A DNA stretch of 64,000 bases from Candidatus Latescibacterota bacterium (lineage in GTDB: Bacteria; Latescibacterota; UBA2968; GCA-2709665). Location of the stretch: the NCBI GenBank assembly GCA_965222075.1, contig OZ244937.1, forward strand, positions 2,944,001-3,008,000, written 5' to 3'. Every line of letters starts with the position of its first letter. The stretch's first letter is position 1. The position numbers were made by a program, and so were the translations under genes. The notes below the pieces were generated by a model. It worked only from the letters and a program-made list of their open reading frames with translations. It searched no databases and was not told where the DNA came from. Below, one piece after another: positions 30,811-48,023 of the stretch.

Positions 30811-31884
30811 ATGGCGTCCCGAAAGAGATTTCACTTCTCCCCCTCCCTTCACCACGGGCACCTCCTGAAACAGACCCAACAGGCCCTGGCCTACAAAGGC
30901 GGCGACGTCAAAACCTGGCAGCGTAAACTCCGTCGCAAACTCCGCGAACTGGTCGGCGAGATGCCCGATGAACCGGTTCCGCTCAACGTCCGGACCCTGT
31001 GGAAGCGGGACCACCCCCTCGGCGCCATCGAAAAGATCGTCTTCACCAGCGAGCCTTACGCCGACGTCCCCGCCTTCCTCTGCCTCCCGAAAAATGCAGC
31101 CCCCCCCTACACCACCTTCGTCTGCGTCCAGGGCCACTCCACCGGCATGCACAACTCCATCCGCGTAGACCGGGACGACAATACCCAGCCGATTGACGTC
31201 CCCGGCGACCGCGACTTCGGCCTCCTCTGCATGGAGCAGGGCATCGCCGCCCTCTGCATTGAACAGCGCTCCTTCGGTGAGCGGAGGGAACGCGACCAGA
31301 AAAAAACCGCCCGCCACGGCTGCCAGGACGCCACCATGCACGCCCTCATGCTCGGCCGCACCCTCATCGGCGAACGGGTCTACGACGTGGACCGCGGCAT
31401 CGACTACCTCAAAGCCCGGGGCGAGACCGACATGAACCGCATCGGGATCATGGGCAACTCTGGCGGCGGCACCATCAGCCTCTTCGCCGCCGCCCTCCTG
31501 CCCCGGATCCGGTATGCCATGCCCTCCTGCTACTTCTGTACCTTCAAAGACTCCATCATGTCGATCGGCCACTGCGTGGACAACTACCTCCCCCGCCTTC
31601 TCAAATACGCTGAAATGCCCGACGTCATGGGCCTCTTCGCCCCCAGACCGGTCGTCCTGGTGGCAGGCAAAGAGGACGGCATCTTCCCTATCGCCGGCGT
31701 CCGCAAAGCCTTCAGACACCTGAAAACCATCTACGCCGCCGCGGGCGCGGCCGGCCGGTGCCACCTCGTCGTGGGAGGGGAAGGGCACCGCTTCTACGCC
31801 AAAGAGGCCTGGCCTGAGATGCTGAAAGAGATCGCGCCGAAAGAAGGGAACGAAGCGCCATGCCGAAAAAATACTGGCTCATGA
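30811..31884 (+). CDS. Alpha/beta hydrolase (acetylxylan esterase/dienelactone hydrolase-like)
   Basis: GNSGGG nucleophile, EDGIFP, EGHRFY. Confidence 0.85.
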   Translation: MASRKRFHFSPSLHHGHLLKQTQQALAYKGGDVKTWQRKLRRKLRELVGEMPDEPVPLNVRTLWKRDHPLGAIEKIVFTSEPYADVPAFLCLPKNAAPPYTTFVCVQGHSTGMHNSIRVDRDDNTQPIDVPGDRDFGLLCMEQGIAALCIEQRSFGERRERDQKKTARHGCQDATMHALMLGRTLIGERVYDVDRGIDYLKARGETDMNRIGIMGNSGGGTISLFAAALLPRIRYAMPSCYFCTFKDSIMSIGHCVDNYLPRLLKYAEMPDVMGLFAPRPVVLVAGKEDGIFPIAGVRKAFRHLKTIYAAAGAAGRCHLVVGGEGHRFYAKEAWPEMLKEIAPKEGNEAPCRKNTGS

Positions 31885-32330
31885 AATGCGAATATGACGA
31901 ATGCACCTTTGACGAACTCAAAGCCAGACCCGACCGCATCGGCCGCTGGCGCGGCGTGCGTAACTATCAGGCCCGCAACTTCATCCGGGACGAAATGAGA
32001 ATCGGCGACCTCGCATTCTTCTACCAATCCAACTGCAGTGAACCGGGCACTGCGGGGCTGGTGGAAATCGTCCGGGAAGGCTACCCCGACCCGTCCCAGT
32101 TCGATCCCGAACAGACCTATTACGACCCCAAAGCCACCCAGGACAACCCCAGGTGGTTCTCCGTGGACGTCAAGTGGAAAAAGGCCTTCCAGACCTTCGT
32201 CCACCTCAAAGACCTCAAAGCCAACCCCGAACTCAAAGACATGAAAGCCGTCCAGAGAGGCCAACGCCTCTCCATCCAGCCGGTCACAAAAAAGGAATTT
32301 GACACCGTCTGCAAAATGGGCGGGGTGTGA
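31860..32330 (+). CDS. EVE domain protein
   Basis: YWLMKCE, WRGVRNYQARNF, FFYQSNC, YYDPK, RLSIQPV. Confidence 0.92.
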   Translation: MPKKYWLMKCEYDECTFDELKARPDRIGRWRGVRNYQARNFIRDEMRIGDLAFFYQSNCSEPGTAGLVEIVREGYPDPSQFDPEQTYYDPKATQDNPRWFSVDVKWKKAFQTFVHLKDLKANPELKDMKAVQRGQRLSIQPVTKKEFDTVCKMGGV

Positions 32331-35618: not shown

Positions 35619-36854
35619 ATGAGCGGAGCAATCGCAATGCCGGATTTCACAGAAGAAGAGCTACTGCAAATCATCGCAGCCGGCGAAGCTGACCGCGTCG
35701 AATTCAAGGAGTCTTTGTCCGGTGACGCCGCCACCAGGATCAGGGAAGCCATCTGCGCTTTTGCCAACGACCTGCCCGACCACGGAAAACCCGGTCTCGT
35801 CTTCGTCGGAGTAAGGGACAACAAAACGATCGGGGATATATCGGTCACAAACCAATTGCTCCGACAGTTGGCCGATATGAAAACCGACGGCAATATCGTG
35901 CCGCCGCCATCGCTGACCGTTGAAAAGCGGGTGCTGCAAGGCAAAGAAGTGGCGCTGATCACAGTGCAACCCTCCAACTCGCCGCCGGTTCGCTGCAAAG
36001 GAGCCATCCACATCCGCATCGGCCCGCGCCGCGGCATCGCCACATCTCAGGATGAAAGGATGCTCAACGAAAAGCGGCGATACGGAGACCGCCCTTTCGA
36101 CCTCCAGCCAATTCCTACCGCCGGCTTGCCCGACCTCAATCTGACCCAGTTTGAGAACGAATACTTAACCGCAGCATTTCCGGATGAGGTACTGGCAGCA
36201 AACGATCGCAGCCTGAATGAGCAACTCGCCGCGACAAAAATGATCGTCGCTGCCGACCAGCCCACCGCGACCGTGCTGGGCATACTCACGATCGGCAAAA
36301 ACCCGCAGGATTTTCTGCCAGGTGCTTATGTGCAATTCCTCAGAATTAATGGCAACGAATATGCTAATGAAATAATTGATGCCGAAGAGATACGCGGTGC
36401 CATTCCAGAGCTTCTTCGCCATCTCGAAGAAAAACTGACGGCCCACAATCGCATCGCTGTGGATATCACAACGAGCTACATTGAACAACGAACTGAGCTG
36501 TACCCTATGGAAGCGTTGCACCAGATCACCCGCAACGCAGTGATGCACAGGACGTACGAAACAACCAACGCGCCGGTTCATGTCTATTGGTTCAATGACC
36601 GTATTGAGGTGATGAGCCCCGGTGGCGCGTTCGGGGCGGTGACAATCGAGAGCTTTGGGAAACCGGGATTGGTCGATTACCGCAACCCCAACCTGGCGGA
36701 ATCCATGAAAACACTGGGATATGTCCAGCGTTTTGGCGTAGGAATACCAATCGCCAAACGGCAGTTGGCGGCCGCGGGACATCCGGAACCTGAATTCGAT
36801 ATTTCCGATCACTTTGTGTCGGTAACGGTAAGGGGCAGGGGAGCAAAACAATGA
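35619..36854 (+). CDS. AlbA_2 (Schlafen-like) + HATPase_c_4 domain protein
   Basis: GEADRVEFKES, ICAFAN, FVGVRD; NAVMHRTY, RIEVMSPGG, YRNPNLA, GVGI. Confidence 0.85.
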   Translation: MSGAIAMPDFTEEELLQIIAAGEADRVEFKESLSGDAATRIREAICAFANDLPDHGKPGLVFVGVRDNKTIGDISVTNQLLRQLADMKTDGNIVPPPSLTVEKRVLQGKEVALITVQPSNSPPVRCKGAIHIRIGPRRGIATSQDERMLNEKRRYGDRPFDLQPIPTAGLPDLNLTQFENEYLTAAFPDEVLAANDRSLNEQLAATKMIVAADQPTATVLGILTIGKNPQDFLPGAYVQFLRINGNEYANEIIDAEEIRGAIPELLRHLEEKLTAHNRIAVDITTSYIEQRTELYPMEALHQITRNAVMHRTYETTNAPVHVYWFNDRIEVMSPGGAFGAVTIESFGKPGLVDYRNPNLAESMKTLGYVQRFGVGIPIAKRQLAAAGHPEPEFDISDHFVSVTVRGRGAKQ

Positions 36855-37894
36855 CCGTTCCCGTTTTGACTTTCTTCAACAACAAGAGCGGCGTCGGCAA
36901 AACTTCCCTTGTCTACCATCTGGCGTGGATGCTGTCCGACATCGGTTATCGGGTATTGGCCTGTGACCTGGACCCGCAGGCGAACCTCACCGCTGCATTT
37001 CTGAATGAAGAACAGTTGGAAAAGCTGTGGGACGAAGACAACGATGCCTCCGGGCGGACCATCCTGCAGTGCGTCCGGCCTTTGACGAAAGTAGGCGACA
37101 TTGAGGCCCCTACACTCGCAAATATCAGTCCTGCGCTGAGTCTGATACCAGGAGACTTAGCTTTGGCCGGATTTGAAGACACCCTCTCGTCAGAATGGCC
37201 CAACGCATTGGGCTCCGGCGAACTCTACCGCCCCTTCCGTATTCTGACTGCCTTCTCGACCGTCATGCAATCCGGGGCAAAACAGATGAACGCCTCGGTC
37301 ATCCTGGCCGACGTCGGCCCCAATCTTGGTGCGATTAACCGCTCCGCATTGATTGCCACCGATTACATCATCGTTCCGCTGGGTACCGACCTGTTTTCAC
37401 TCCAGGGCCTGCGCAACCTCGGCCCGACGCTGAATCGGTGGCGGCAAGACTGGCAGCGGCGAAGGGACAACTGGAGACAACCGGGCTTTCCACTGCCGGA
37501 TGGGGAGATGCAACCCGTCGGCTATGTGGTACAACAGCACGGCGTACGCCTGAGCCGCCCCGTCAAGGCGTATGACAAGTGGGTCAATCGAATGCCGGAA
37601 GAATACGCCCGCAACCTGCGCGGCGATAACGAAGGACCTTACCCCGCGACACCGGCACAAGATGAAGAACACGCCCTCGCCACCGTCAAGCACTACCGGA
37701 GCTTAGTGCCAATGGCTCAGGAAGCGCGCAAGCCCATTTTTCACCTCACCACGGCCGACGGTGCCATTGGCAGCCATGCCGCCGCTGCAAATGACGCACG
37801 CCGGGATTTCAGGGATTTGGCGAAGAAGATCGTACAAAGAATCAAGCTCAGGGACCTGCGGAGCACAGGAAAAGAGGCAACATGGAAAACGTAA
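36851..37894 (+). CDS. ParA-like (AAA_31) ATPase
   Basis: FFNNKSGVGKT, DLDPQANLT, DVGPNLGAINR; ATGA overlap with the upstream gene. Confidence 0.87.
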   Translation: MTVPVLTFFNNKSGVGKTSLVYHLAWMLSDIGYRVLACDLDPQANLTAAFLNEEQLEKLWDEDNDASGRTILQCVRPLTKVGDIEAPTLANISPALSLIPGDLALAGFEDTLSSEWPNALGSGELYRPFRILTAFSTVMQSGAKQMNASVILADVGPNLGAINRSALIATDYIIVPLGTDLFSLQGLRNLGPTLNRWRQDWQRRRDNWRQPGFPLPDGEMQPVGYVVQQHGVRLSRPVKAYDKWVNRMPEEYARNLRGDNEGPYPATPAQDEEHALATVKHYRSLVPMAQEARKPIFHLTTADGAIGSHAAAANDARRDFRDLAKKIVQRIKLRDLRSTGKEATWKT

Positions 37895-38028
37895 AAGAAG
37901 ATATAGGCGCCGCCAAAGCTGCCGATCCGACGGCGGACACCAGCGAGCAGGAAGCGGAGATAGATCAACAGGTCTATACACTGTACGGACTGACGGCGGA
38001 AGAGATCGCGGCGGTGGAAACTGTCTGA
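37882..38028 (+). pseudogene. 48-aa collapsed type IIG (Eco57I-like) R-M gene: start fused to C-terminal tail
   Basis: GAGG RBS; MENVKEDIGAAKAADPTADTSEQEAEIDQQVYTLYGLTAEEIAAVETV*. Confidence 0.7.
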
Positions 38029-38031
38029 ATC

Positions 38032-38315
38032 AGGATTATCAGGATGATAGGATTTTCAGGATGGAGGGATAGGTGGTTAAGCAGAGAGGAGGGGGTTCAG
38101 GATGAGCAGGATGGGAGGATGGGAGAATGAATGGATAAGTGGAGGGCAGAGTTTTCAAGATGGGAGGATTATCAGGATGATAGGATTTTCAGGATGGAGG
38201 GATAGGTGGTTAAGCAGAGAGGAGGGGGTTCAGGATGAGCAGGATGGGAGGATGGGAGAATGAATGGATAAGTGGAGGGCAGAGTTTTCAAGATGGGAGG
38301 ATTATCAGGATGATA
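38032..38315. repeat. 133-bp purine-rich tandem duplication (2 copies + 18 bp)
   Basis: aggattatcaggatgata recurs at 38032, 38165 and 38298 with identical intervening sequence. Confidence 0.93.
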
Positions 38316-38319
38316 CAGG

Positions 38320-38715
38320 ATGATAAATGATCCGCTGACATATAAGATTATTGGTTGTGCTATGAAAGTACACAATACGCTTGGGAATGGGTTTCAGGAA
38401 GTTATTTATCAGAGGTGCCTCGCTATTGAGTTGGAACGGACTGGAATCGATTTCAGTCGGGAGGTGGAGCAGACGATTTTTTATGATGGCATTGTAGTGG
38501 GAACGAGAAGAGCCGACTTTGTTGTCGCTAATCAAGTTGTGGTTGAGTTAAAAGCGGTCATTGAGCTGGCGGATGTTCACATTGCACAGGTGAAAAACTA
38601 TGTGGTGGCGTACGATTTTAATCTCGGTCTTTTGATCAACTTCGGGACAGAAAGTCTGGAATACAGACGGATATTCAACACGAAAAAGAATCCTGCAAAT
38701 CCAAAAATCCAGTAA
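38320..38715 (+). CDS. GxxExxY protein (PD-(D/E)xK-like)
   Basis: LGNGFQEVIY, RRADFVV, VELKA, GLLINFG. Confidence 0.92.
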   Translation: MINDPLTYKIIGCAMKVHNTLGNGFQEVIYQRCLAIELERTGIDFSREVEQTIFYDGIVVGTRRADFVVANQVVVELKAVIELADVHIAQVKNYVVAYDFNLGLLINFGTESLEYRRIFNTKKNPANPKIQ

Positions 38716-38716
38716 A

Positions 38717-38774
38717 GAAATCGCTCGAATCGGACGATCCCCGGCCAAAAGCCGGGGCATTCTGCGAGATTTTC
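38717..38774. repeat. 58-bp imperfect palindrome, copy A
   Basis: gaaatcgctcgaatcggacgatccccggccaaaagccggggcattctgcgagattttc flanked by GTAA. Confidence 0.9.
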
Positions 38775-38860
38775 GTAACCATACACCGTTTGCCAACGCC
38801 CAAACGTCGGCGGCAACACCTTCCACTGGCAGCCGATTTTGGTCCGGTAGAGGATGCCAG

Positions 38861-38914: not shown

Positions 38915-38923
38915 GGTTGACAG

Positions 38924-39085
38924 ATGAGGAACTCGTTCATCCGCCTGGCAGACCGCATCCTGACGGCCAAATCCGCCGACCCGAAGGCCAATACCAGTGA
39001 GCTGGAAGCGGAGATAGATCGGCTGGTCTATGCGCTGTACGGCCTGACGGAGGAAGAAATAGCAACAATAGAGGTGAAGATATGA
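38924..39085 (+). pseudogene. Orphan type IIG R-M C-terminal tail, copy 3
   Basis: MRNSFIRLADRILTAKSADPKANTSELEAEIDRLVYALYGLTEEEIATIEVKI*; stop overlaps the next ATG. Confidence 0.75.
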
Positions 39086-40496
39086 AAATCAGCGTGAAAA
39101 ATCTGGGCGTCCTGAAGCAGGCGGAATTTGAACTGGGCGAGTTGACCCTTATTTGCGGCGGCAATAATACGGGCAAAACCTACGCGACGTACGCCCTGTT
39201 TGGCTTTTTACGGCGCTGGGAACATTTGTTGAAAGTCGAAATTCCCAGTCAGGCTATTGACGCCCTACTGAGGGACGGCGTAACGCGGGTTGATATTGAG
39301 CCCTATGCCATCATGGAAGCGAACGACATCCTTAGACAGGGTTGCCGAGAGTACACCCGGCGACTCCCGAGAGTCTTTGCTTCGAAACCGGACCGCTTCA
39401 AAGACGCGACATTTCAAGTGTCTCTTGAACCGGAAACAATATCATCGATAAAGAGCCGTGCTTTTGAGCGCAGAAGAGGATCTGCCGAAGACGATCTTCT
39501 CTCCCTGTCCAAGTCTGAAGGAGAAAAGGACCTGGTGATCTCGCTACTGATGGACAAGGGGAAAAGAGCATTGCCCGCTGAAATGATTAAGGAAATAATC
39601 TCAGACGGGATTGTTGAATTACTCTTCGACCAATTTTTTCCCCGGCCTTTTATCGCCAGCACAGAGCGCACCGGCGCGGCAATTTTTCGCAAGGAACTGA
39701 ATTTTGCCCGAAACCGCTTGCTGGAAGAAATGAGTCGAGCGGATGAAAACATTAACCCGATGGAATTGTTGTTCAAGTCCTACCAGGACTATCCCTTGCC
39801 TGTCAAAGTCAACGTGGACTTTATCCGGCAACTTGAGAACGTTGCCAAAGAAGACAGCTTTCTTGTCGAAAACCATCATACTGAATGATTTCGCCGACAT
39901 CATCGGTGGCGAATACATCGCGGAAAGTAATGACACGATTTACTTCAAGCCCGCACGCAGACAACTGAAGCTGACAATGGACGAAAGTTCCAGCGCGGTG
40001 CGTTCCCTGTTGGATCGCGGGAATTGACACGATTTTTATTTGAGTCATGTCGCAAAATGTCGCAAAACCTGGCGACCTGCTGATGGTAGATGAGCCGGAA
40101 TTAAACCTGCACCCGGAAAATCAGCGTCGCATGGCTCGGCTCTTTGCGCGGTTGGTAAATCTGGGTATCCGCGTCTTCGTGACCACGCACAGCGACTATA
40201 TTGTCAAGGAACTCAACACCCTGATTATGTTGAATCAGAACAAGCCCTACCTGAAGCAAATCGCGCAAGAGGAAGGCTACCAAACCGAAGAGCTTATAGC
40301 TGCTGAAAAAATCAGGGTTTATATCGCAGAGAAAGCGTTGGTGAAGCTGGAAAACAAAAGCAGGAGAAGCCGACACCCAACGCTCGTGCCAACCAGGATA
40401 GACCCAGAGTTGGGGATTGAGGCACGTAGTTTCGACGAGACCATCAATAAAATGAATGAGATTCAGGAAGCCATTGTGTGGGGTGGAGATGAATGA
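39082..40496 (+). pseudogene. AAA_15/AAA_21 ABC-type ATPase, disrupted
   Basis: GGNNTGKT Walker A, ESSSAVRSL signature, VDEPELNLHP Walker B and TTHS fall in separate ORF pieces; lesions near 39875 and 40015-40060 include a 10-bp duplication (atgtcgcaaa). Confidence 0.85.
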
Positions 40497-41080
40497 TGTC
40501 CGACTTTGATATATTACGAGATTTGATTCGGGATGAGACGTTGGCCTCGGTTGAGTGTCAACATGGCAAAAAGATTATCGTCCTGGAGGAACCTGGCAAT
40601 CAACAACAATCAGCATATTCCCTGAAGATATGCAACGTGCCGGATGACATTATCGCGTTCAAAGCGGATGCTTTCCCGCCGCCAAACAGTATTTTCAAAA
40701 ACAGCAAAGGAGAATGTAAGCGGGCCGATTTTGTGGTCATCGCCAGTGACGACAAAGCAAACTGGATTGTTTACATAGAAATGAAAAGTGGCAAAGGCGA
40801 TTCGGAAAAAGAAATCGAGCAACAATTGCGTGGAGCACAATGCCTTGTCGCCTACTGCCGCGCCATTGGTCAGGAATTCTGGCAAGAGCCGAAATTCCTT
40901 GAAAAAAAGAATTACCAACAGCGTTTTATCAGCGTTAAAAATATTGGGATACCAAAACGGCCAACACAAATGCGGCCAGAATCCGGTCAGCACGACACGC
41001 CGGAACGTATGCTGAAAATCAACGCGCCAGCTGAAGGCGACCTGCGATTTAACAAACTGGTCGGATCAAATCGTGGTTGA
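40493..41080 (+). CDS. Hypothetical PD-(D/E)xK-like nuclease, partner of the ATPase
   Basis: CKRADFVV...YIEMKS; ATGA overlap with the ATPase. Confidence 0.6.
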   Translation: MMSDFDILRDLIRDETLASVECQHGKKIIVLEEPGNQQQSAYSLKICNVPDDIIAFKADAFPPPNSIFKNSKGECKRADFVVIASDDKANWIVYIEMKSGKGDSEKEIEQQLRGAQCLVAYCRAIGQEFWQEPKFLEKKNYQQRFISVKNIGIPKRPTQMRPESGQHDTPERMLKINAPAEGDLRFNKLVGSNRG

Positions 41081-41102
41081 GTAAATCCCAAAATCCAGTA
41101 AA

Positions 41103-41160
41103 GAAATCGCTCGAATCGGACGACCTCCGGCCAAAGGCCGGGGCATTCTGCGAGATTTTC
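41103..41160. repeat. 58-bp imperfect palindrome, copy B
   Basis: Near-identical to 38717-38774; flanked by GTAAA on both sides and followed by tcctgatcctgacaa. Confidence 0.9.
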
Positions 41161-41226
41161 GTAAATCCTGATCCTGACAATTGCACGGTCTCACGCCGAA
41201 GAAACTGCTATTGTGGAGGAAAGAGA

Positions 41227-43924
41227 ATGAGCGAACCACTAAAAGTATTCATCACTTATTCGCATAAGGATACAGACGCAAAGGATAAATTGATAGAGTG
41301 TCTTGCTGTGATGAAACAACAAGGCATCATAGCGATTTGGCACGATAACGAAATCCTCCCAGGTGACGAGTGGCGTGAAGACATTTCCAACAACCTTACC
41401 GGTTCAAACATTCTGCTTTACCTCGTCTCCGCTTCGAGTCTTGCTTCTGAAAACTGCAACAAGGAATTGGGCGAGTCATTAGACTCCAGGATAAGAGTCA
41501 TCCCCATTATCCTTGAGCGTTGCGATTGGCAAAATCATCAACTCAGCGACATCCAGGCTCTGCCTGATGAAGGCATGCCCATTAACGAATGGACGCCTGA
41601 GAGCACGGCCTGGCAAAATGTGGTAGAGGGTATCCGAAAAGTCGTTGACGAAATGCAAGATCAGCCAAAACTCTCATTTGTATAACACAAGAGGAAATAG
41701 AAATACTGACTTATTTGGCACTACAACGGGGTAACTTTCTGATGATGCTGAGGCAAATCGACAGGGCAATGGAAGCCTACTCACGTGCAATTGAGCTTAA
41801 CCCGGAATATGCCACTGCCTATAACAACCGTGGCAATACTTACGGCATCGAAGACGATGTTGACCGGGCTATCGAGGACTACAACAAGGCCATAGACCTG
41901 AACCCGGAATATGCCACTGCCTATAACAACCGCGGCATTGCTTACAGCCACAAAGGTGCGTATGACCGGGCTATCGAGGACTACAACAAGGCCATAGACC
42001 TGAACCCGGAATATGACTTAGCCTATAACAACCGCGGCACTGTTTACCACTTCCAAAAGGAGTATGACCATGCCATCGCAGACTATAGCCAAGCGATAGG
42101 CCTGAACCCGGATTATGCCACTGCCTATAACAACCGCGGCAATGCTTACAGTCACAAAGGCGCGTATGACCGGCCATCGTAGACTATAGCAAGGCGATAG
42201 GCCTGAACCCGGATTATGCCACTGCCTATAACAACCGCGGCAATGCTTATCGCAGAAAAGGCGCGTATGACCGGGCTGTCGAGGACTATAGCAAGGCGAT
42301 AGGCCTGAACCCGGATGATGCTACTGCCTATAACAACCGCGGCAATGCTTACAGCGACAGAGATGAGGTTGAACAGGCCATCGCAGACTATAGCAAGGCG
42401 ATAGAGTTGAACCCGGATGATGCCACTGCCTATAACAATCGCGGTGCTACTTACCGCTGCGAAGGTGTGGTTGACCGTGCTATTGCGGACTACAACAAGG
42501 CGATAGAATTGAACCCGCACTATGCCTTGGCCTATAACAATCGCGGCAATGCTTACAGCGACAAAGGCGCGTATGACCGGGCCATCGCAGACTACAACAA
42601 GGCGATAGACCTGAACCCGGAGTTTGCCTTGGCCTATTGCAATCGCGGCATGTATTGGCTGCGCTTGCAAAATTGGCAAGGAGCCAGATCAGACCTGACA
42701 GTTGCCAAGAGCATGGGCATGGATATTATCGCAGCATTTCGTAACGATTACAAAAATGTTGCGGCATTTGAGCGGAGATATGGTTTTCAGTTACCGGAAG
42801 ATATCACAATAATGCTGACGCAACGGCGACGGAGCCGTTTCCCCAAAACGTCAGAAGATTTGAGACAGCAGGTATCCCTTCTTCAAGACCAATCTTCCAA
42901 GACGGAAGAAGTCTTTAGTGCCGATGACACGTCCTCGCCTGATGTGTTGAACTTACTCACGAAACTTTGCAACGCCGGTACGCCGTTGGCGGAATACGTC
43001 AAGACGCGACCCTATTTCGGCATCAAGGTAGACAGGAACGAAGCGTTTGTCGTGGATAGCACGACGCGGGATAAGCTCATTGCGGAGCACCCTTCATCCG
43101 CTGATATTTTGAAGCCGTTTTTGCACGGGCGGGACATAAGACGCTGGCAGGTAGGTGCACAGGATTTGTGGTTGATCTTTGCCTACCGAGGAATAGAGAT
43201 AAACGGTTATCCCGCCATCCAGAAATACTTGGGGAAATACAGAGGTTCCCTGAGCAAAAGGGGGGGTAAACAGGAATGGTACGAGCTACAAGCGTCCCTC
43301 GACGACTCCGAGCGCTTTACGCAAACGAAGCTTGTCTGTCCAAATCTCTATAACCACCAAACTTTCGCCGTTGAGACGGATGGTTTTTACTGTGGGCATA
43401 CATGCTACCTTATCCCGACCGCAGAAAAGTGGTTATGCGGTGTCCTCAATTCCCGCGTTGTGGAGTGGTTTTATTCACATGAGTCGAACCAATTAACAGG
43501 CAAGGAACTTCGGGCACTCAGTGGCTATATGCAGCAGATCCCGATCCCCAATGTCACGTCAACGCAGAAGGGACTGATCGGCAAAATCGTCGATTATCTC
43601 ATCTATCTCCAGAAACAGCCGACTACAAACAGCAAGGATTTGGCACACGCCCGCGACCACGTAATGCTCAGATATTTTGAGCGGATAATCGACGGACTGG
43701 TTTATGAATTCTATTTGCCCGAGGAACTTCATCAGGGTGGCAAATATTTTTTCAAACCACTGTTGGACGAACAGTTGCCGCAACTTAAAGAGATTCAGGG
43801 TGATAAAATGTCTGCATTCCGGGGCATCTTCGAGCACCTGTATGAAAAAACTCATCCAGTTCGGAAGAACCTCTTCTTTCTCGATAGTTTAAAACCTATC
43901 CGCATCATTGAGGGCAAGCTATGA
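41227..43924 (+). pseudogene. TIR + TPR repeats + TaqI_C-like target recognition domain fusion, with two frameshifts
   Basis: TIR (VFITYSHKD, WHDNEILPG, SENCNKEL); shift near 41680; TPR units; 1-nt loss near 42172; then YFGIK...NEAFVVD...LKPFLHGRDIRRW...EWYELQ...LNSR...IPIP (IIG TRD-like). Confidence 0.8.
41770..42650 (+). repeat. 102-bp TPR-coding tandem repeat (9 units)
   Basis: AACCCG at 41799, 41901, 42003, 42105, 42206, 42308, 42410, 42512, 42614; the single 101-bp interval marks the frameshift. Confidence 0.9.
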
Positions 43925-45339
43925 GAGTTACCAAAATTGAGATTAAAAACTTCAGAGGCTTTTATGGAACCTACCAAATCAACCTGCATCAGGCAGGAAA
44001 AAACCTGCTGGTCTACGGCGAAAATGGAAGCGGAAAATCGTCGCTTTATCTTGCGTTAAAATTCTTCCTTGAATCCGGCGAGGATGCTTCCTACATATTT
44101 GAAAACTATCAGAACATCTTTATCACAGATGACGGCTACATCAAACTACATCTCAGTGCTAACCAACGGTCAAAGGCACGCATCTACGAATGGTCACAGA
44201 GCGTTAAAAAGACGAATGACCGTCTAATTATCGAAGCATCAAAGGCAAAGGGCTTCCTCGACTATAAGGCACTTCTGGAGACGCACTATATCCATCGCGA
44301 AAGCGGTACTGTGAATGTGTTCGATTTGCTGATTAAGAATCTCTTGGCAAACACCGTCAGCGTCCTAACAGGTCGAAGCCTTACCGACGATTGGGCTGAC
44401 ATTCAGCCACCATTTCCACGCCGAGATGCAACCTATAAAATTGCAACCCTTGAAGGACAGATAGAGAATTTCAACCACGAATTAGCAAGCAAATTAGCAG
44501 AACTGCAAACGAAGGCGTCCGAAATCCTCGGCAAATTTGGATACGACGTTGCCCTTGACTTCCAGTTTCAGGGGATTACATACAATCGCGACGAAAAAGC
44601 GCTTGATGGGGAGCAGATTCTATTAACAGTCAAGTTCTTTGACAAAGAGATTCCTGCACACCACCGCTTCCTGAACGAGGCTAAACTGTCGGCGATTGCG
44701 ATTGCTATCTACTTTTCTTCAATTTTGCTCCAGCCAGCCAGCGACCTGAAAATTCTCGCCTTAGATGACGTGCTAATCGGCTTGGACATGTCAAACCGCT
44801 TGCCTGTAATCGACATTATAGAAGAATACTTCTCAGATTATCAGATATTCTTCATGACCTATGATCGCACTTGGTATGAAATTGCCAAGCAACGGACGGC
44901 AGATAGTGAATGGAAATATGCTGAATTCTACTTCTCGAAAACCGACGAATACGAGATTCCGGTCTATATGGAAGATCGCGCGTATCTTGAAAAGGCGAAG
45001 GAGTATTTCGCTGCCAACGACTACAAAGCCTGCGTAATTTACCTTCGCACCGCCTTTGAAGTGGCAATCAAGAAATTCTGCGAGAAGAAGAATCTCCAAG
45101 TCAAGTACCGAGAAAATCCGAAGCGCCTGACAAGCGACGATTTCTGGACGCCAATAAAAAAGGGAAAGGACAGGTGGGGTGTGCCCTTTTTAGAACCGAC
45201 TCTCGTTAAAGAGATTGAACTGTACCGAAGCGTTATCCTAAACCCGCTTAGCCATGCTACCATTGTCACCACCATCAAAAAAGAGATCTCCGAGGCAATA
45301 AAAGCAGTGGGAAAACTTGAGGCGAAATTAAATCAGTAA
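43921..45339 (+). CDS. ABC/SMC-like ATPase with C-terminal HEPN-like domain (RloC/PrrC-like architecture)
   Basis: IEIKNFRG, GENGSGKSS, LNEAKL signature, LDDVLIGLD Walker B, C-terminal LRTAFE...YRSVILNPLSH. Confidence 0.75.
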   Translation: MRVTKIEIKNFRGFYGTYQINLHQAGKNLLVYGENGSGKSSLYLALKFFLESGEDASYIFENYQNIFITDDGYIKLHLSANQRSKARIYEWSQSVKKTNDRLIIEASKAKGFLDYKALLETHYIHRESGTVNVFDLLIKNLLANTVSVLTGRSLTDDWADIQPPFPRRDATYKIATLEGQIENFNHELASKLAELQTKASEILGKFGYDVALDFQFQGITYNRDEKALDGEQILLTVKFFDKEIPAHHRFLNEAKLSAIAIAIYFSSILLQPASDLKILALDDVLIGLDMSNRLPVIDIIEEYFSDYQIFFMTYDRTWYEIAKQRTADSEWKYAEFYFSKTDEYEIPVYMEDRAYLEKAKEYFAANDYKACVIYLRTAFEVAIKKFCEKKNLQVKYRENPKRLTSDDFWTPIKKGKDRWGVPFLEPTLVKEIELYRSVILNPLSHATIVTTIKKEISEAIKAVGKLEAKLNQ

Positions 45340-45340
45340 A

Positions 45341-45378
45341 GAAATTGCTCGAATCGGACGGTCCCCGGCCAAAAGCCG
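45341..45378. repeat. 58-bp palindrome, truncated copy C
   Basis: cagtaaa-gaaattgctcgaatcggacggtccccggccaaaagccg directly after the ATPase stop codon. Confidence 0.85.
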
Positions 45379-45496
45379 CCGATTTAGCCCCGTCCCTGAG
45401 TTTTACGAAAAACAGCCAATATTTTATAAATATTTATATTATAAAGACTTATGTCTTATCAATCGAGAACCTGTCAATTAAAACCTAAAAATTGTG

Positions 45497-45525
45497 TTGA
45501 CTATCAACTCAACTTTCGATATATT
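45497..45525 (+). promoter_or_regulatory. Sigma70-like promoter of the HTH operon
   Basis: TTGACT-17 bp-TATATT with AT-rich upstream DNA. Confidence 0.55.
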
Positions 45526-45575
45526 TAGCTCAGGCTGTTTAACCTCAATCATCAACGCCCTCATAGGAACTGCTC

Positions 45576-45920
45576 ATGCCAACATCATTTGGACAGGCTT
45601 TAAGAGAATTGCGACGATCCAAAAACGTGATCCAGAGAGACCTGGCTGCCCGGGTCGGCGTAGATTTTTCTTACATCAGCAAAGTGGAAAATGATCGCTT
45701 ACCCCCACCATCTGCTGATACCATTGTGAAAATTTGTGAAGCACTTTCCGTTCCAGCCGATCGTTTGCTCTCAATGACAGGCAAAGTACCTACACCGGTC
45801 CGCGAAATGGTAGGTAAAAGCACGGCTGCCCAACAGTTTATGCAACAGGCTCATAGCCTTGATCTCTCAGAAGAAGAGTGGGAAAAACTAACTCAAAACC
45901 TGAAACGATTGCGAAATTGA
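45576..45920 (+). CDS. XRE-family helix-turn-helix regulator
   Basis: FGQALRELR...QRDLAARVGVDFSYISKVEND. Confidence 0.88.
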   Translation: MPTSFGQALRELRRSKNVIQRDLAARVGVDFSYISKVENDRLPPPSADTIVKICEALSVPADRLLSMTGKVPTPVREMVGKSTAAQQFMQQAHSLDLSEEEWEKLTQNLKRLRN

Positions 45921-45960
45921 GCGTTTTGTATGCAGAAGTGTATTTCAGGAAGAAAATCTG

Positions 45961-46413
45961 ATGAGCACACAGTGGCTGGATATTCAGAGCTTCCAACAGA
46001 GTCAGGAACTCCTGTCCGCGACCAACACCCTGTCCATTCACCGTAAATTGACTGCCAGAGGTTATCCCGATACGAATAGAAAAGAAGCCGCAGAACAGGC
46101 GAGAGAGACCCTTGTAGCTTTTTTTCAGAAACTGGATAAAATCGTTCAGAACATCGAAGATGGGCATCGAAAGCCTGTCCTGGGTGTGGATGCCCGGTTG
46201 CGTCATCTGGCGGAAAATTACGTCCATGCAAAACGCGCTCGCGGTCAATCTCGTTCTCCATTTCTCGAACATCCTCTTTCTCAAGTCAGGGATTTGTTCT
46301 ATTCCGAACGCCCCGAAGACCGCCGTGAAGTACTGGCAGTCCTGGCGGCATTTCGCGAACTGCTTGAGGAACATGTCAGTGTTGATGCGAAGCGTTTGCT
46401 GGGAGATATCTGA
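45961..46413 (+). CDS. Hypothetical alpha-helical protein
   Basis: 150-aa ORF co-oriented between the HTH and ATPase genes; no family recognised. Confidence 0.6.
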   Translation: MSTQWLDIQSFQQSQELLSATNTLSIHRKLTARGYPDTNRKEAAEQARETLVAFFQKLDKIVQNIEDGHRKPVLGVDARLRHLAENYVHAKRARGQSRSPFLEHPLSQVRDLFYSERPEDRREVLAVLAAFRELLEEHVSVDAKRLLGDI

Positions 46414-46514
46414 TTGTTTCACATCCTCCGACAAAACTTAATTTGACCTGGCCCATAAGGGATCCAGGAATAGCCAGATACATTGGAAAAACTGTTGCGT
46501 TGAGAGAGGCAAAA

Positions 46515-48023
46515 ATGGTGAGCAAGCAGAGTTCACTTTTTTGGGATGATGGAATTTCGCCGCAATTGGCCGCTGACTTGCGTCGTCTGAATCCATGGTG
46601 GGAGGACGATCCTATGCCTCCACAGCCAAAGACGCGCCGCCACCTGGTCGCACAGATACGCCGTCTTTTGGAGGCAGAGATTGCTCCGATCGTCGTGGTG
46701 CGCGGCCCTCGGCAGGTGGGAAAGACGACCGCGCAGTTTCAAATCATCGCGGACTTGCTTGAAGAAGGCGTACCTTCCACAAACATCCTCCGGGTCCAGT
46801 TCGACGAATTAGCCTCACTGCGAGGGACGAAGGAGCCGATTCTTTCCATCTCCAACTGGTTTGAACGGAAGATAACAGAGGATCGTTTCAACGCGCTGGC
46901 GCGAGACGGCCGGAAGGCTTATCTCTTTTTTGACGAAGTGCAGAACCTCGATGACTGGGACGCGCAACTCAAGTCTCTTGTGGACAACGCCGCGGTAAAG
47001 GCCGTGGTCACGGGAAGTTCCGCACTGAGGATTGAAATGGGCCGGGACAGCCTGGCCGGGCGCGTCAATACGGTCGAAGCGGGTGTGCTTTCGCTGACTG
47101 AAATCGGTGCGTTGCGCGAGTTGGAAACTCTGAAGCCATTCCTGCCGGACAACGGTCTGAGTCACTTGATCGACAAGGGTTTCTGGCAGGAACTGCGTGC
47201 GTACGGACAGGAAAACACGGGATTTCTGAAAGAGGTGTTCGGGCATTTTTCAGAGCGTGGAGGCTATCCGATCGTCCACAAGCTAAGGGATGTCGAATGG
47301 GCTTTGCTTGCGGACCAGTTGAACGAAACTGTGATTAAGCGCGTTATTGAACACGACCTCCGGGTGGGTCGCCGCGGGCGAAAGAGGGATGCCCAACTAC
47401 TTGAGGAGCTTTTCCGCCTGACCTGCCGCTATGCCGGGCAGGCGCCGACAGTTTCGACGCTTGCGGACGAGGTCCGGCAATCACTCGGCGCAAATATTGG
47501 CAGCCAGCGAGTCACTCATTATTTGAAGTTTCTCAGTGAGACGCTTCTGCTTCGGTTGATTCCTCCGCTTGAGATACGTCTCAAAAGAAAGCGAGGAAGT
47601 TCCAAACTTTGTCTGGTCGATCACGGCTTGCGAGCCAGTTGGCTTCAGGAACAGATACCATTAACGCCTGAAGCCCTGGCAGAACACCCTGAACTCACCT
47701 CGTTAGCCGGCCATCTCGCTGAGAGTATTTTCGGCTCGGTTGCTTCGACAATTCACGGCCTGGACATCGCCCATTTCCCCGAACGAGGAATGGATCGTGA
47801 AGTGGATTTCGTTTTGACCATCGGCGCTCAACGCTTGCCGGTGGAAATCAAATATCAACGTAAGATAGATCCCCTGCGGGATACGCTGGGCATTCGGTCA
47901 TTCCTCGAAAAATCAGTCAACAACGCCTCATTTGGCTTGCTGATCACTCAGGACTATTCCGGGGAAGTTGACGACCCCCGAATCGTGAGCCTGCCTCTTT
48001 CAACCTTTATGCTTATCAGATGA
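46515..48023 (+). CDS. AAA_14 ATPase + DUF4143 domain protein
   Basis: NPWW, GPRQVGKTT, FFDEVQ, VTGSS, GGYP, EVDFV...PVEIK. Confidence 0.88.
   Translation: MVSKQSSLFWDDGISPQLAADLRRLNPWWEDDPMPPQPKTRRHLVAQIRRLLEAEIAPIVVVRGPRQVGKTTAQFQIIADLLEEGVPSTNILRVQFDELASLRGTKEPILSISNWFERKITEDRFNALARDGRKAYLFFDEVQNLDDWDAQLKSLVDNAAVKAVVTGSSALRIEMGRDSLAGRVNTVEAGVLSLTEIGALRELETLKPFLPDNGLSHLIDKGFWQELRAYGQENTGFLKEVFGHFSERGGYPIVHKLRDVEWALLADQLNETVIKRVIEHDLRVGRRGRKRDAQLLEELFRLTCRYAGQAPTVSTLADEVRQSLGANIGSQRVTHYLKFLSETLLLRLIPPLEIRLKRKRGSSKLCLVDHGLRASWLQEQIPLTPEALAEHPELTSLAGHLAESIFGSVASTIHGLDIAHFPERGMDREVDFVLTIGAQRLPVEIKYQRKIDPLRDTLGIRSFLEKSVNNASFGLLITQDYSGEVDDPRIVSLPLSTFMLIR

Follow-up and report, generated by a model that had tools for sequence, protein, structure and literature searches.

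A TIR-TPR protein fused to a type IIG recognition tail and coupled to an ABC ATPase-HEPN gene: a candidate two-gene defence module in uncultured bacteria

The gene pair and its domains

The DNA analysed here (the window) is a stretch of 64,000 nucleotides from a Candidatus Latescibacterota bacterium (contig OZ244937.1, positions 2,944,001 to 3,008,000). It contains a pair of genes overlapping by 4 nt. Gene 1 encodes, in this order, a TIR domain, about ten TPR units, a TPR end-tail, a TaqI_C-type target recognition domain (TRD) and a C-terminal domain (CTD). Gene 2 (43921-45339) is intact and encodes a protein of 472 aa, an ABC ATPase with a predicted HEPN-fold domain at its end. According to the open reading frame (ORF) listing and to a three-frame translation, gene 1 is one long coding stretch running from an ATG at 41227 to a stop at 43924, distributed in the window copy over three frames (Table 1).

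The TIR_2 family (PF13676) was found by Pfam in ORF 41077-41685 (E 3.2e-16, 60.3 bits for a cut-off of 28) and in intact homologs (66.3 and 62.9 bits). The best PADLOC match of this piece is ThsB (PDLC00420, E 2.7e-27), and it shares 74% identity with the TIR of an intact homolog at locus L018. In plant and bacterial TIRs that cleave NAD, the glutamate of a WCxxE-like motif is the catalytic position. The glutamate that an initial annotation of the window had located in an SxxCxxE motif is indeed present: the string reads SENCNKE, with the putative catalytic residue at 41464-41466, and of the 75 aligned TIRs, 74 have E in this column and one has G. The product of gene 1 may have TIR NADase activity. 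TPR_1 and related families were recognized by Pfam in ORF 41715-42182 and in the N-terminal part of ORF 42407-43924. The translation gives nine 'NRG' units following one degenerate first unit ('QRG'), so that the earlier count of nine was about right. A separate TPR gene of the same genome ends with the same tail (G000:C1:1140822-1141001, 50% identity), and the N-terminal two thirds of gene 1 therefore look like a former complete TIR-TPR protein.

The remainder of gene 1 resembles the end of a restriction enzyme. TaqI_C covers residues 236-380 of the 505-aa ORF 42407-43924 (E 9.5e-14, 52.1 bits for a cut-off of 26.5) and scores 58.8 and 59.2 bits in intact homologs. In PADLOC, the alignment of this last ORF with type IIG models is confined to their C-terminal end (PDLC03596, positions 866-1132 of 1148, E 1.1e-27). 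As the initial annotation had stated, the TRD stands without methyltransferase or restriction endonuclease: no family of either kind was matched by the window pieces in Pfam or PADLOC, and no Eco57I/N6_Mtase or nuclease domain was found by Pfam in the intact homologs of 792 and 874 aa.

The translational coupling of the two genes, also proposed previously, agrees with their ATGA overlap. A GAGG sequence is located 8-11 nt 5' of the ATPase ATG, within the codons (ATC ATT GAG GGC AAG, 43906-43921) for IIEGK, the near-invariant last residues of gene 1. Since these codons contain the likely ribosome-binding site of gene 2, constraints on the protein and on ribosome binding overlap at this point. 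A promoter and terminator scan of 40900-45700 produced 10 and 7 sites, compared with 6.5 +/- 2.6 and 5.6 +/- 2.1 in shuffled sequences, and thus no signal.

The product of gene 2 belongs to a large and poorly named family, with 2728 representatives at E<=1e-3 and 557 at E<=1e-30; two of the 120 best relatives bear a name, which is only 'ATP-binding protein' or 'AAA family ATPase'. Searched against the PDB, a profile of 56 members matched Rad50 over residues 1-315 (E 1.8e-15), and the AlphaFold2 (AF2) model of the protein (pLDDT 89.1) matched SMC/Rad50 heads in Foldseek (E 3e-13). Residues G33, N35, G36, K39, D282 and D283 are invariant in the 56 sequences, and the insert of the head is predicted to be a single helix of about 35 residues (171-205). 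The stretch from residue 355 to residue 471 is entirely helical. Because Foldseek returned only SMC/Rad50 heads with the whole model, the C-terminal domain was folded and searched alone (pLDDT 72.7), and HEPN proteins then came first in both Foldseek and VIA-align. The Foldseek matches (2q00, 1o3u, 1ufb, 1wol, Csm6 and 2hsb) are weak (E 0.14-0.9). In VIA-align, run on 48,161 chains, the eight top ranks are all occupied by HEPN proteins (Z 9.1-11.4, root-mean-square deviation 2.5-4.1 A, 101-116 residues aligned), with Csm6, AbiA and SO_3166 at the next ranks. In Pfam, this domain gave sub-threshold matches only, to DUF4145 of the HEPN clan in 14 of 15 members (best E 0.003) and to HEPN in two of the 15.

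Three residues of this domain, R376, E380 and H445, are invariant in the 56 sequences, down to 31% identity, and N441 is conserved in 95% of them. H445 is directly preceded by S444, and the resulting R376-x3-E380...S444-H445 set has a triad spacing of 64 residues. The section of PMC2610378 concerned with RloC gives its motif as Arg-X3-Glu-X36-52-His, where 'Ser often precedes His', gives Arg320-Glu324-His356 as the PrrC counterpart, and reports that each residue of the triad is required for the anticodon-nuclease activity of RloC. The C-terminal domain of gene 2 is thus predicted to have a HEPN fold with a catalytic-type set similar to those of PrrC and RloC, and may act as an RNase. The initial annotation had described gene 2 as an ABC-ATPase/HEPN gene and had pointed to ribonucleases of the PrrC/RloC type, which agrees with an ABC head joined to a HEPN fold with Arg-x3-Glu...Ser-His. 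The motif that it had singled out, RSVILNPLSH, has to be replaced by the three invariant residues: among 65 family members, only about 60% have its arginine (R436), and R-x8-H is not the canonical Rx4-6H. AAA_13 (PF13166) reached 18.4 and 22.2 bits, for a cut-off of 36, in two homologs and only in the P-loop region, and Pfam did not list it for the window ATPase. As this cut-off is not reached and the spacing is 64, we consider the ATPase as built like PrrC and RloC without filing it as a member of their family.

The open frames of gene 1 extend over 41227-41685 (frame 1), 41649-42182 (frame 0) and 42170-43924 (frame 2). Since the three pieces occupy three frames, the sequence contains two shifts of -1, corresponding to two 1-base deletions. 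An intact homolog reads through the first point. The second break reads GAC CGG CCA TCG, and one more base behind 42172 yields DRAIVDYSKAIGLNP; if this base is T, the codons become GAC CGT GCC ATC (DRAI) and the frame is restored. Both breaks were checked in Logan contigs of four runs from four studies (X1, X3, X5 and X10). The extra T behind 42172 is present in every covering contig of X3, X5 and X10, and in X1 it accounts for 19.1 of a depth of 49.6, the window version accounting for 30.5. A 1-base insertion behind 41676-41680 has 36.4 of 36.4 depth in X1, 14.8 of 20.4 in X3 and 9.26 of 9.26 in X5, X10 being without cover at this place. As contigs of other runs hold the missing bases, near-identical alleles with both frames restored are common. 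The window copy is either a strain-specific pseudogene or affected by consensus errors. Real decay in the centre of the low-GC island that surrounds the pair is favoured, because the PDC-M47A gene upstream is likewise in three frames and the long neighbours (the 1087-aa PLD-SNF2 helicase, the ATPase and the AAA_14 genes) are intact.

Distribution and natural forms of the pair

We searched 41 related genomes with the ATPase as query and compared the flanks of the matching loci. Full-length homologs, 71-79% identical, are present in four genomes, which belong to the same order but to another family. At three loci (L017, L018 and L019), a single open TIR-TPR-TRD gene is located directly 5' of the ATPase gene, with gene 1 products of 870, 792 and 874 aa, respectively. 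The ATPase has 469 aa at L018 and L019, and its gene is interrupted by one TAG at L017; identities to the window pair are 72-79% at these three loci. Over the tail and the TRD, these three gene 1 products are 72-74% identical to that of the window. In each case the pair stands alone between housekeeping-type genes, with no third conserved gene. Intact genes with the order and the neighbour described by the initial annotation therefore exist, including the fusion of TPR to TRD, both at these loci and at those named below, and the 4-nt overlap is always present. At L020, the place of gene 1 is taken by a 1170-aa type IIG enzyme (Eco57I E 9.8e-40, TaqI_C, PDLC03596 over its full length), itself preceded by a PLD-SNF2 helicase gene. 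The TRD and CTD of the fusion are 42% identical to those of this enzyme, and the ATPases of L020 and of the window are 70% identical.

In a large protein collection, 991 relatives of the tail and TRD were retrieved at E<=1e-3. Domains were counted in the best 120 of them, each at least 65% identical: TaqI_C occurs in all 120, accompanied by TPR in 119 (the exception is P0073). Their N-termini consist of this TIR in 80 cases (51-100% identical), another TIR_2-type domain in five and an FRG domain in one; 13 have a short N-terminus without TIR and 21 begin within the repeats, probably through cut gene calls. The TIR-bearing relatives range from 643 to 1154 aa, which makes the TPR array the most variable part of the protein.

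A scan limited to one genome per species yielded 16 named loci, three of which duplicate loci of the L017-L020 set. They come from metagenome-assembled genomes (MAGs) titled Latescibacterota, Poribacteria or Gemmatimonadetes. Upstream DNA is available for 15 loci: the fusion occupies this position at nine of them and a complete type IIG gene at the other six. In all 15, the stop codon of the upstream gene falls 4 nt after the start of the ATPase gene. Eight of the nine fusions carry this TIR and one (L034) carries another TIR type. A PLD-SNF2 helicase match was found upstream of five of the six type IIG genes. At L033, an intact type IIG gene (1180 aa) is located directly before the fusion gene.

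More distant relatives were also detected. The conjugative plasmid pANSO36B of Nostoc cf. commune (L037, 7988-10434) carries a TRD-CTD gene of 338 aa and an ATPase-HEPN gene, annotated 'TaqI-like C-terminal specificity domain-containing protein' and 'AAA family ATPase'. These genes overlap by 4 nt and adjoin a TrbI/VirB10 gene. The plasmid ATPase is 49.7% identical to that of the window, and the alignment of the 338-aa protein with the window ORF covers residues 194-503 of the latter and takes in the CTD (38% identity, E 4e-79). Other short database relatives begin just before the TRD (e.g. P0395, P0399, P0401 and P0496), and many relatives of 385-425 aa begin within the TPR tail and are probably fragments. 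On four contigs of viral collections, a type IIG gene lies directly before the ATPase gene (25-47% identical), and on a Thiospirochaeta plasmid the ATPase gene (29% identical) is preceded by a weakly TRD-like gene of 285 aa. Every form thus keeps the TRD-CTD and ATPase-HEPN parts together while the N-terminal part differs (nuclease-methylase, TIR-TPR, FRG-TPR or nothing), and as far as these sequence comparisons reach, TRD-CTD plus ATPase-HEPN is the constant unit.

TRD-only ORFs occur in another setting as well. In two related genomes, G040 (C1:4836570-4838197) and G029 (C1:1858125-1859755), such an ORF (258 and 262 aa, respectively) lies head-to-head with a long type IIG-like ORF (1025 and 1272 aa), at the TRD end of the latter, which is the layout of an invertible specificity cassette.

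We aligned the last 330 residues of sixteen upstream proteins, of which the last 120 or so form the CTD. The CTD is 74% identical between fusions, 75% between type IIG enzymes and 62% between the two kinds, whereas the corresponding means for the TRD proper are 67%, 37% (with large insertions) and 32%. In fusion genes, the median ratio of nonsynonymous to synonymous substitution rates (dN/dS), calculated only from pairs with dS<2.5, is 0.17 for the TRD (36 of 45 pairs) and 0.124 for the CTD (38 of 45 pairs), so that both are, on these sequences, under purifying selection. When the ATPase was modelled together with the 330-residue TRD-CTD segment, the three runs had a median ipSAE of 0.86, while none of three controls exceeded 0.00. 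This mark is reached by 116 of 157 solved complexes and by 2 of 215 mismatched pairs, figures that give a rough scale only, own alignments having been used. The runs share at least 98% of their contacts, and the partner has a pLDDT of at least 88. The predicted interface joins residues 235-329 of the segment, within the CTD, to residues 101-109, 146-152, 172-193, 216-218 and 270-274 of the ATPase. The model supports docking of the CTD on the ATPase head, and this predicted contact fits the conservation pattern.

The surrounding island

The pair is located in an island of low GC content (44-52%, compared with 60-66%), alongside other defence-type genes. These are, in order, an EVE gene, a PLD-SNF2 helicase gene, Schlafen/AlbA_2 and ParA-like genes, two type IIG 3' tails, a PDDEXK_3 gene and a broken PDC-M47 (PD-T4-4-like) pair, followed by the TIR/ATPase pair, an HTH gene and an AAA_14/DUF4143 gene (Table 1). 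No tRNA gene was found in 25000-52000. In related loci, the helicase gene precedes type IIG and ATPase genes; here its type IIG partner is missing. The Schlafen/AlbA_2 gene overlaps the ParA-like gene by 4 nt, possibly forming a two-gene unit with weak PADLOC matches to pAgo-associated proteins only. Both copies of the type IIG tail have 58-65% protein identity to the tail of the 1180-aa enzyme of L033, and the second copy (38966-39063) overlaps the start of PDC-M47A. Near 38915 lies the end of a third piece resembling these tails (...YELYRLTAEEVAAVEE). Between the first tail copy and the PDDEXK_3 gene, a perfect tandem duplication (133 nt x 2, 100% identical) occupies 38032-38297. An 82-nt repeat forming a GC-rich hairpin (CCCCGGCC...GGCCGGGG) occurs at 38697-38778 and 41083-41164 (95% identical). 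One copy spans the end of the PDDEXK_3 gene; the other is located just 3' of PDC-M47B, about 60 nt before the TIR start. The PDC-M47 / PD-T4-4-like two-gene system itself (39082-41080) lies directly upstream of gene 1. On the other side, the HTH_3, 150-aa ORF and AAA_14/DUF4143 genes (45576-48023) close the island.

Table 1. Positions of the features of the gene pair and of neighbouring genes in the window.
Feature	Position	Strand	Evidence or remark
TIR domain piece, frame 1; stop 41683-41685	41227-41685	+	Pfam TIR_2, PADLOC ThsB
Frameshift 1, frame 1 to frame 0	41671-41680	.	one base missing compared with contigs of other runs
TPR units 1-5, open frame 0	41649-42182	+	Pfam TPR_1 E 1.3e-45, four full units
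Frameshift 2, frame 0 to frame 2	42172-42173	.	one base missing
TPR units 6-10, open frame 2	42170-42658	+	Pfam TPR_1 and TPR_11 at start of ORF 42407-43924
TPR end-tail (...AKSMGMDIIAAFRNDYKNVAAFERRYGFQLPEDITIMLTQ...), putative former C-terminus of TPR protein	42659-42868	+	80% identity to tail of L018 homolog
TRD of type IIG origin; Pfam TaqI_C at 43112-43546	42932-43561	+	
CTD, common to fusion, full-length type IIG and bare TRD; predicted ATPase docking surface	43562-43921	+	
ATGA stop/start overlap: TGA 43922-43924, ATG 43921-43923; Shine-Dalgarno-like GAGG 43910-43913	43921-43924	+	
ABC ATPase head, residues 1-315; Walker A G33-S41, invariant LNEA 251-254, Walker B D282-D283	43921-44865	+	
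Predicted HEPN-fold C-terminal domain, residues 355-472	44983-45339	+	VIA-align, Foldseek, invariant residues
R376	45046-45048	+	
E380	45058-45060	+	
N441	45241-45243	+	
H445	45253-45255	+	
EVE-domain gene	31860-32330		E 4.7e-51
PLD-SNF2 helicase, intact, 1087 aa	32343-35606		
Schlafen/AlbA_2 + HATPase_c_4 gene	35619-36854		
ParA-like AAA_31 gene	36851-37894		
Two type IIG 3' ends, another subfamily (...EIDxxVYxLYGLTxEEI...)	37912-38009, 38966-39063		98 nt, 82% identical
PDC-M47A (AAA_15 ATPase), three frames	39082-39888, 39743-40027, 40047-40496		PADLOC E 1.9e-108 and 1.3e-77
PDC-M47B, intact	40493-41080		PADLOC E 3.3e-66
HTH_3 regulator	45576-45920		
150-aa ORF	45961-46413		no Pfam (E<=0.01) or NCBIfam match
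AAA_14/DUF4143 ATPase	46443-48023		PADLOC PDC-S01 E 6.9e-37

Interpretation and comparison with known systems

We consider it probable, on balance, that the two genes form a conserved defence module, derived from a type IIG enzyme and its PrrC-like guard, in which a TIR-TPR protein replaced the nuclease-methylase part to give an abortive infection system with two effectors. We infer the defence role, both enzyme activities and the trigger along the following lines. In the ancestral operon, the ATPase-HEPN gene would have stood behind a full-length type IIG restriction-modification (R-M) gene. A TIR-TPR protein would then have taken the place of the nuclease and methylase parts in the lineage of the fusion, the TRD and CTD staying in frame and the 4-nt overlap with the ATPase gene being kept. 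Since the junction is the same in all fusions, the sequences point to a single origin of the fusion, which would then have spread across three phyla. By analogy with EcoprrI, which holds PrrC, the CTD would hold the ATPase head, uniting both proteins in one complex within which the HEPN RNase and the TIR NADase would remain latent. Both effectors would be released when the TPR/TRD part is disturbed or loaded by a phage cue, for which an anti-restriction protein, foreign DNA bound by the TRD and a phage protein bound by the TPR array are candidates. RNA (probably tRNA) would then be cut and NAD+ consumed, and the infection would be aborted.

Several points weigh against this interpretation. All examples of the fusion come from uncultured genomes of three phyla, and three of the 16 named loci are duplicates. 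The window copy cannot make the full gene 1 protein, and the neighbouring PDC-M47A gene is also in pieces. The HEPN call relies on fold and motif, with Foldseek E values of 0.14-2 and a pLDDT of 72.7 for the C-terminal domain, and Z scores under about 13 can, for helical bundles, correspond to a common arrangement. The triad spacing of 64 residues is outside the 36-52 quoted for RloC. The usual ABC switch histidine is not evident in the head (T313-Y314-D315, with Y in about 70% of sequences). The TIR may serve as a scaffold rather than as an enzyme. The complex is a model built from a shallow partner alignment (16 rows) of related sequences that are not independent, and the conservation of IIEGK may be explained in part by the ribosome-binding site of gene 2. 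Finally, no phage-defence model fits either protein specifically, the best PADLOC matches of the ATPase (LmuB, 1e-11; mad3, 8.5e-10) being partial.

More tentatively, and in line with a decoy suggested by the initial annotation, the TRD-CTD tail, deprived of nuclease and methylase, could be an integrated decoy, a bait for phage anti-restriction proteins, and a hit on it would fire both the TIR NADase and the CTD-docked ABC-HEPN RNase. This possibility seems to us clearly less probable than the broader proposal. In a bolder variant, the TIR would produce a nucleotide signal, and loading of the ABC site with this signal would unlock the HEPN domain. If the tail is indeed a bait, the fusion would represent, in bacteria, an equivalent of the plant NLRs that contain integrated decoys, and the principle of PrrC as 'guard of a restriction enzyme' would reach type IIG enzymes and could become independent of restriction.

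A somewhat weaker candidate is the reader of DNA sequence or modification suggested by the initial annotation, in which binding of the TRD to an unmodified sequence on incoming DNA would switch on the TIR, with the ATPase-HEPN protein as a helper. TaqI_C domains read DNA in their parent enzymes, the TRD is kept even in the minimal 338-aa form, and its purifying selection (dN/dS 0.17) argues that it does more than link domains. However, with the window TRD as query, no methyltransferase with a like TRD was found in four carrier genomes (G000, G029, G032 and G035), other TRD matches being at most 32% identical. A distinction of self from non-self by methylation therefore lacks its modifier, and host DNA would carry the same unmodified sites. 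The pair also stands alone among housekeeping-type genes in three genomes. Moreover, the TRDs of type IIG enzymes diverge while the fused TRDs are alike (37% and 67% mean identity), unlike what is expected of a specificity under arms-race pressure, and the common part predicted to contact the ATPase is the CTD, not the TRD proper. We therefore think it rather unlikely that the fusion works as a reader.

Close behind in our estimate, and also improbable, is an addiction remnant. The CTD, with the TRD, would be no more than the antidote to a toxic ATPase-HEPN protein, and the pair would be a selfish, toxin-antitoxin-like unit without a defence role. Any recombination of a TIR-TPR gene into a type IIG gene would then have had to preserve the reading frame of the CTD, and TIR-TPR would be a passenger. 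The association of CTD and ATPase in every form, with its fixed 4-nt overlap, the bare TRD-CTD and ATPase form on a conjugative plasmid and the predicted contact, which involves the CTD only, are all compatible with such a unit. A passenger would hardly be expected to show the selection seen on the N-terminal part: the TIR glutamate is kept in 74 of 75 sequences, the TIR is 51-100% identical across 80 clusters, and in six clusters it has been exchanged for another TIR type or FRG rather than lost. Purifying selection on the TRD proper argues in the same direction.

A role in interaction with animal hosts, as a eukaryote-like TIR-TPR protein of symbionts directed against animal TIR signalling and bearing its restriction tail incidentally, is very unlikely. 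Several carriers are Poribacteria MAGs. The phylum is known for symbionts of sponges with many eukaryote-like repeat proteins, and bacterial TIR proteins that mimic host adaptors exist. Against this, the TIR-TPR part is fused to TRD-CTD and translationally coupled to the ATPase-HEPN gene, it adjoins type IIG, PLD-SNF2 helicase and PDC-M47 genes, and the same core without TIR is carried by the Nostoc plasmid. Last, although the window copy has two frameshifts and its island contains other broken genes and orphan gene tails, we give practically no credit to a chance deletion fusion, nor to the view that the gene is mere debris of a decaying island. The same junction is found in intact genes of many genomes, from three phyla, and dN/dS is well below 1; these results contradict both views, and contigs of four runs from four studies hold the missing bases.

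The preferred proposal, a TIR-TPR replacement of the catalytic part of a guarded type IIG enzyme, would add to the known systems a candidate common in uncultured Latescibacterota, Poribacteria and Gemmatimonadota. PADLOC-DB 2.0.0, NCBIfam 20.0 and Pfam contain no specific model for either protein, so that such a system would be unnamed in all three. Full-text literature searches (10.64898/2025.12.03.692087 included) gave no description of TIR-TPR-TRD proteins or of a type IIG-linked ABC-HEPN protein. The initial annotation had not recognized this architecture as a described system either, and the module does look like an undescribed phage-defence system; a classification of ABC ATPases from 2020 may cover the ATPase clade or its link to type IIG genes. 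If the proposal is correct, the recognition tail of a restriction enzyme has found a second use, serving a different effector, the TIR, as adaptor or bait. The three natural forms associated with the same ATPase (type IIG, TIR-TPR and bare TRD) offer a ready comparison set.

Among known systems, Thoeris shares with the module a TIR whose best PADLOC match is ThsB and whose glutamate is kept. It differs by its ThsA-type gene, as no ThsA match is present among the PADLOC matches listed for 10 window ORFs including both flanking genes (the best 25 matches for two of the ORFs), and the TIR partner here is an ABC-HEPN protein. The ABC-3C systems attributed to Krishnan et al. in 2020 reportedly have three components, including a 'middle component'. 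They resemble the module in combining an ABC ATPase with a repeat-bearing effector in conflict systems and differ from it in the number of components, only two genes being conserved at L017-L019. The BcTir/BcTpr operon of Bacillus cereus is reported (10.1101/2023.05.26.542521) as a two-gene case of a TIR working with TPR repeats in phage defence; in our module, TIR and TPR are in one chain with the TRD of a restriction enzyme. Type IIG enzymes of the Eco57I/MmeI kind with a PLD-SNF2 helicase neighbour share the TRD, the CTD and the downstream ATPase with the fusion. Lacking any Eco57I/N6_Mtase or nuclease domain, the fusion protein cannot act as a methylase or nuclease in the way they do.

The ATPase itself is closest in design to RloC and PrrC. 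RloC combines a Rad50-like ABC part with a HEPN anticodon nuclease domain bearing Arg-X3-Glu-X36-52-His, often with Ser before His (PMC2610378), and a similar design, with R376-x3-E380...S444-H445, is predicted for the module's ATPase. RloC differs in having a long coiled-coil/zinc-hook insert where the module's ATPase has one helix of about 35 residues, and in being rarely linked to R-M genes, whereas the latter is linked to a TRD in every examined locus with upstream DNA. PrrC with EcoprrI (type Ic, E. coli) resembles the module both in the protein, an ABC head with a C-terminal HEPN RNase domain (predicted in the module) bearing Arg-x3-Glu...His, and in the embedding of its gene in, or coupling to, an R-M gene. 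According to passages of PMC2610378, PMC3710099 and 10.1101/2024.01.29.577857, the PrrC RNase is kept latent by the R-M enzyme until a phage anti-restriction factor acts. PrrC differs by its triad spacing (31, compared with 64 in the module), AAA_13 staying below its cut-off in the ATPase homologs, and by its partner, which is a type I complex and not a type IIG tail (TRD and CTD). The fusion form of the module further lacks R-M catalytic domains and carries TIR-TPR. If our proposal holds, the PrrC principle of an RNase guarding a restriction enzyme would extend from type I to type IIG enzymes through a docking domain of about 120 residues.

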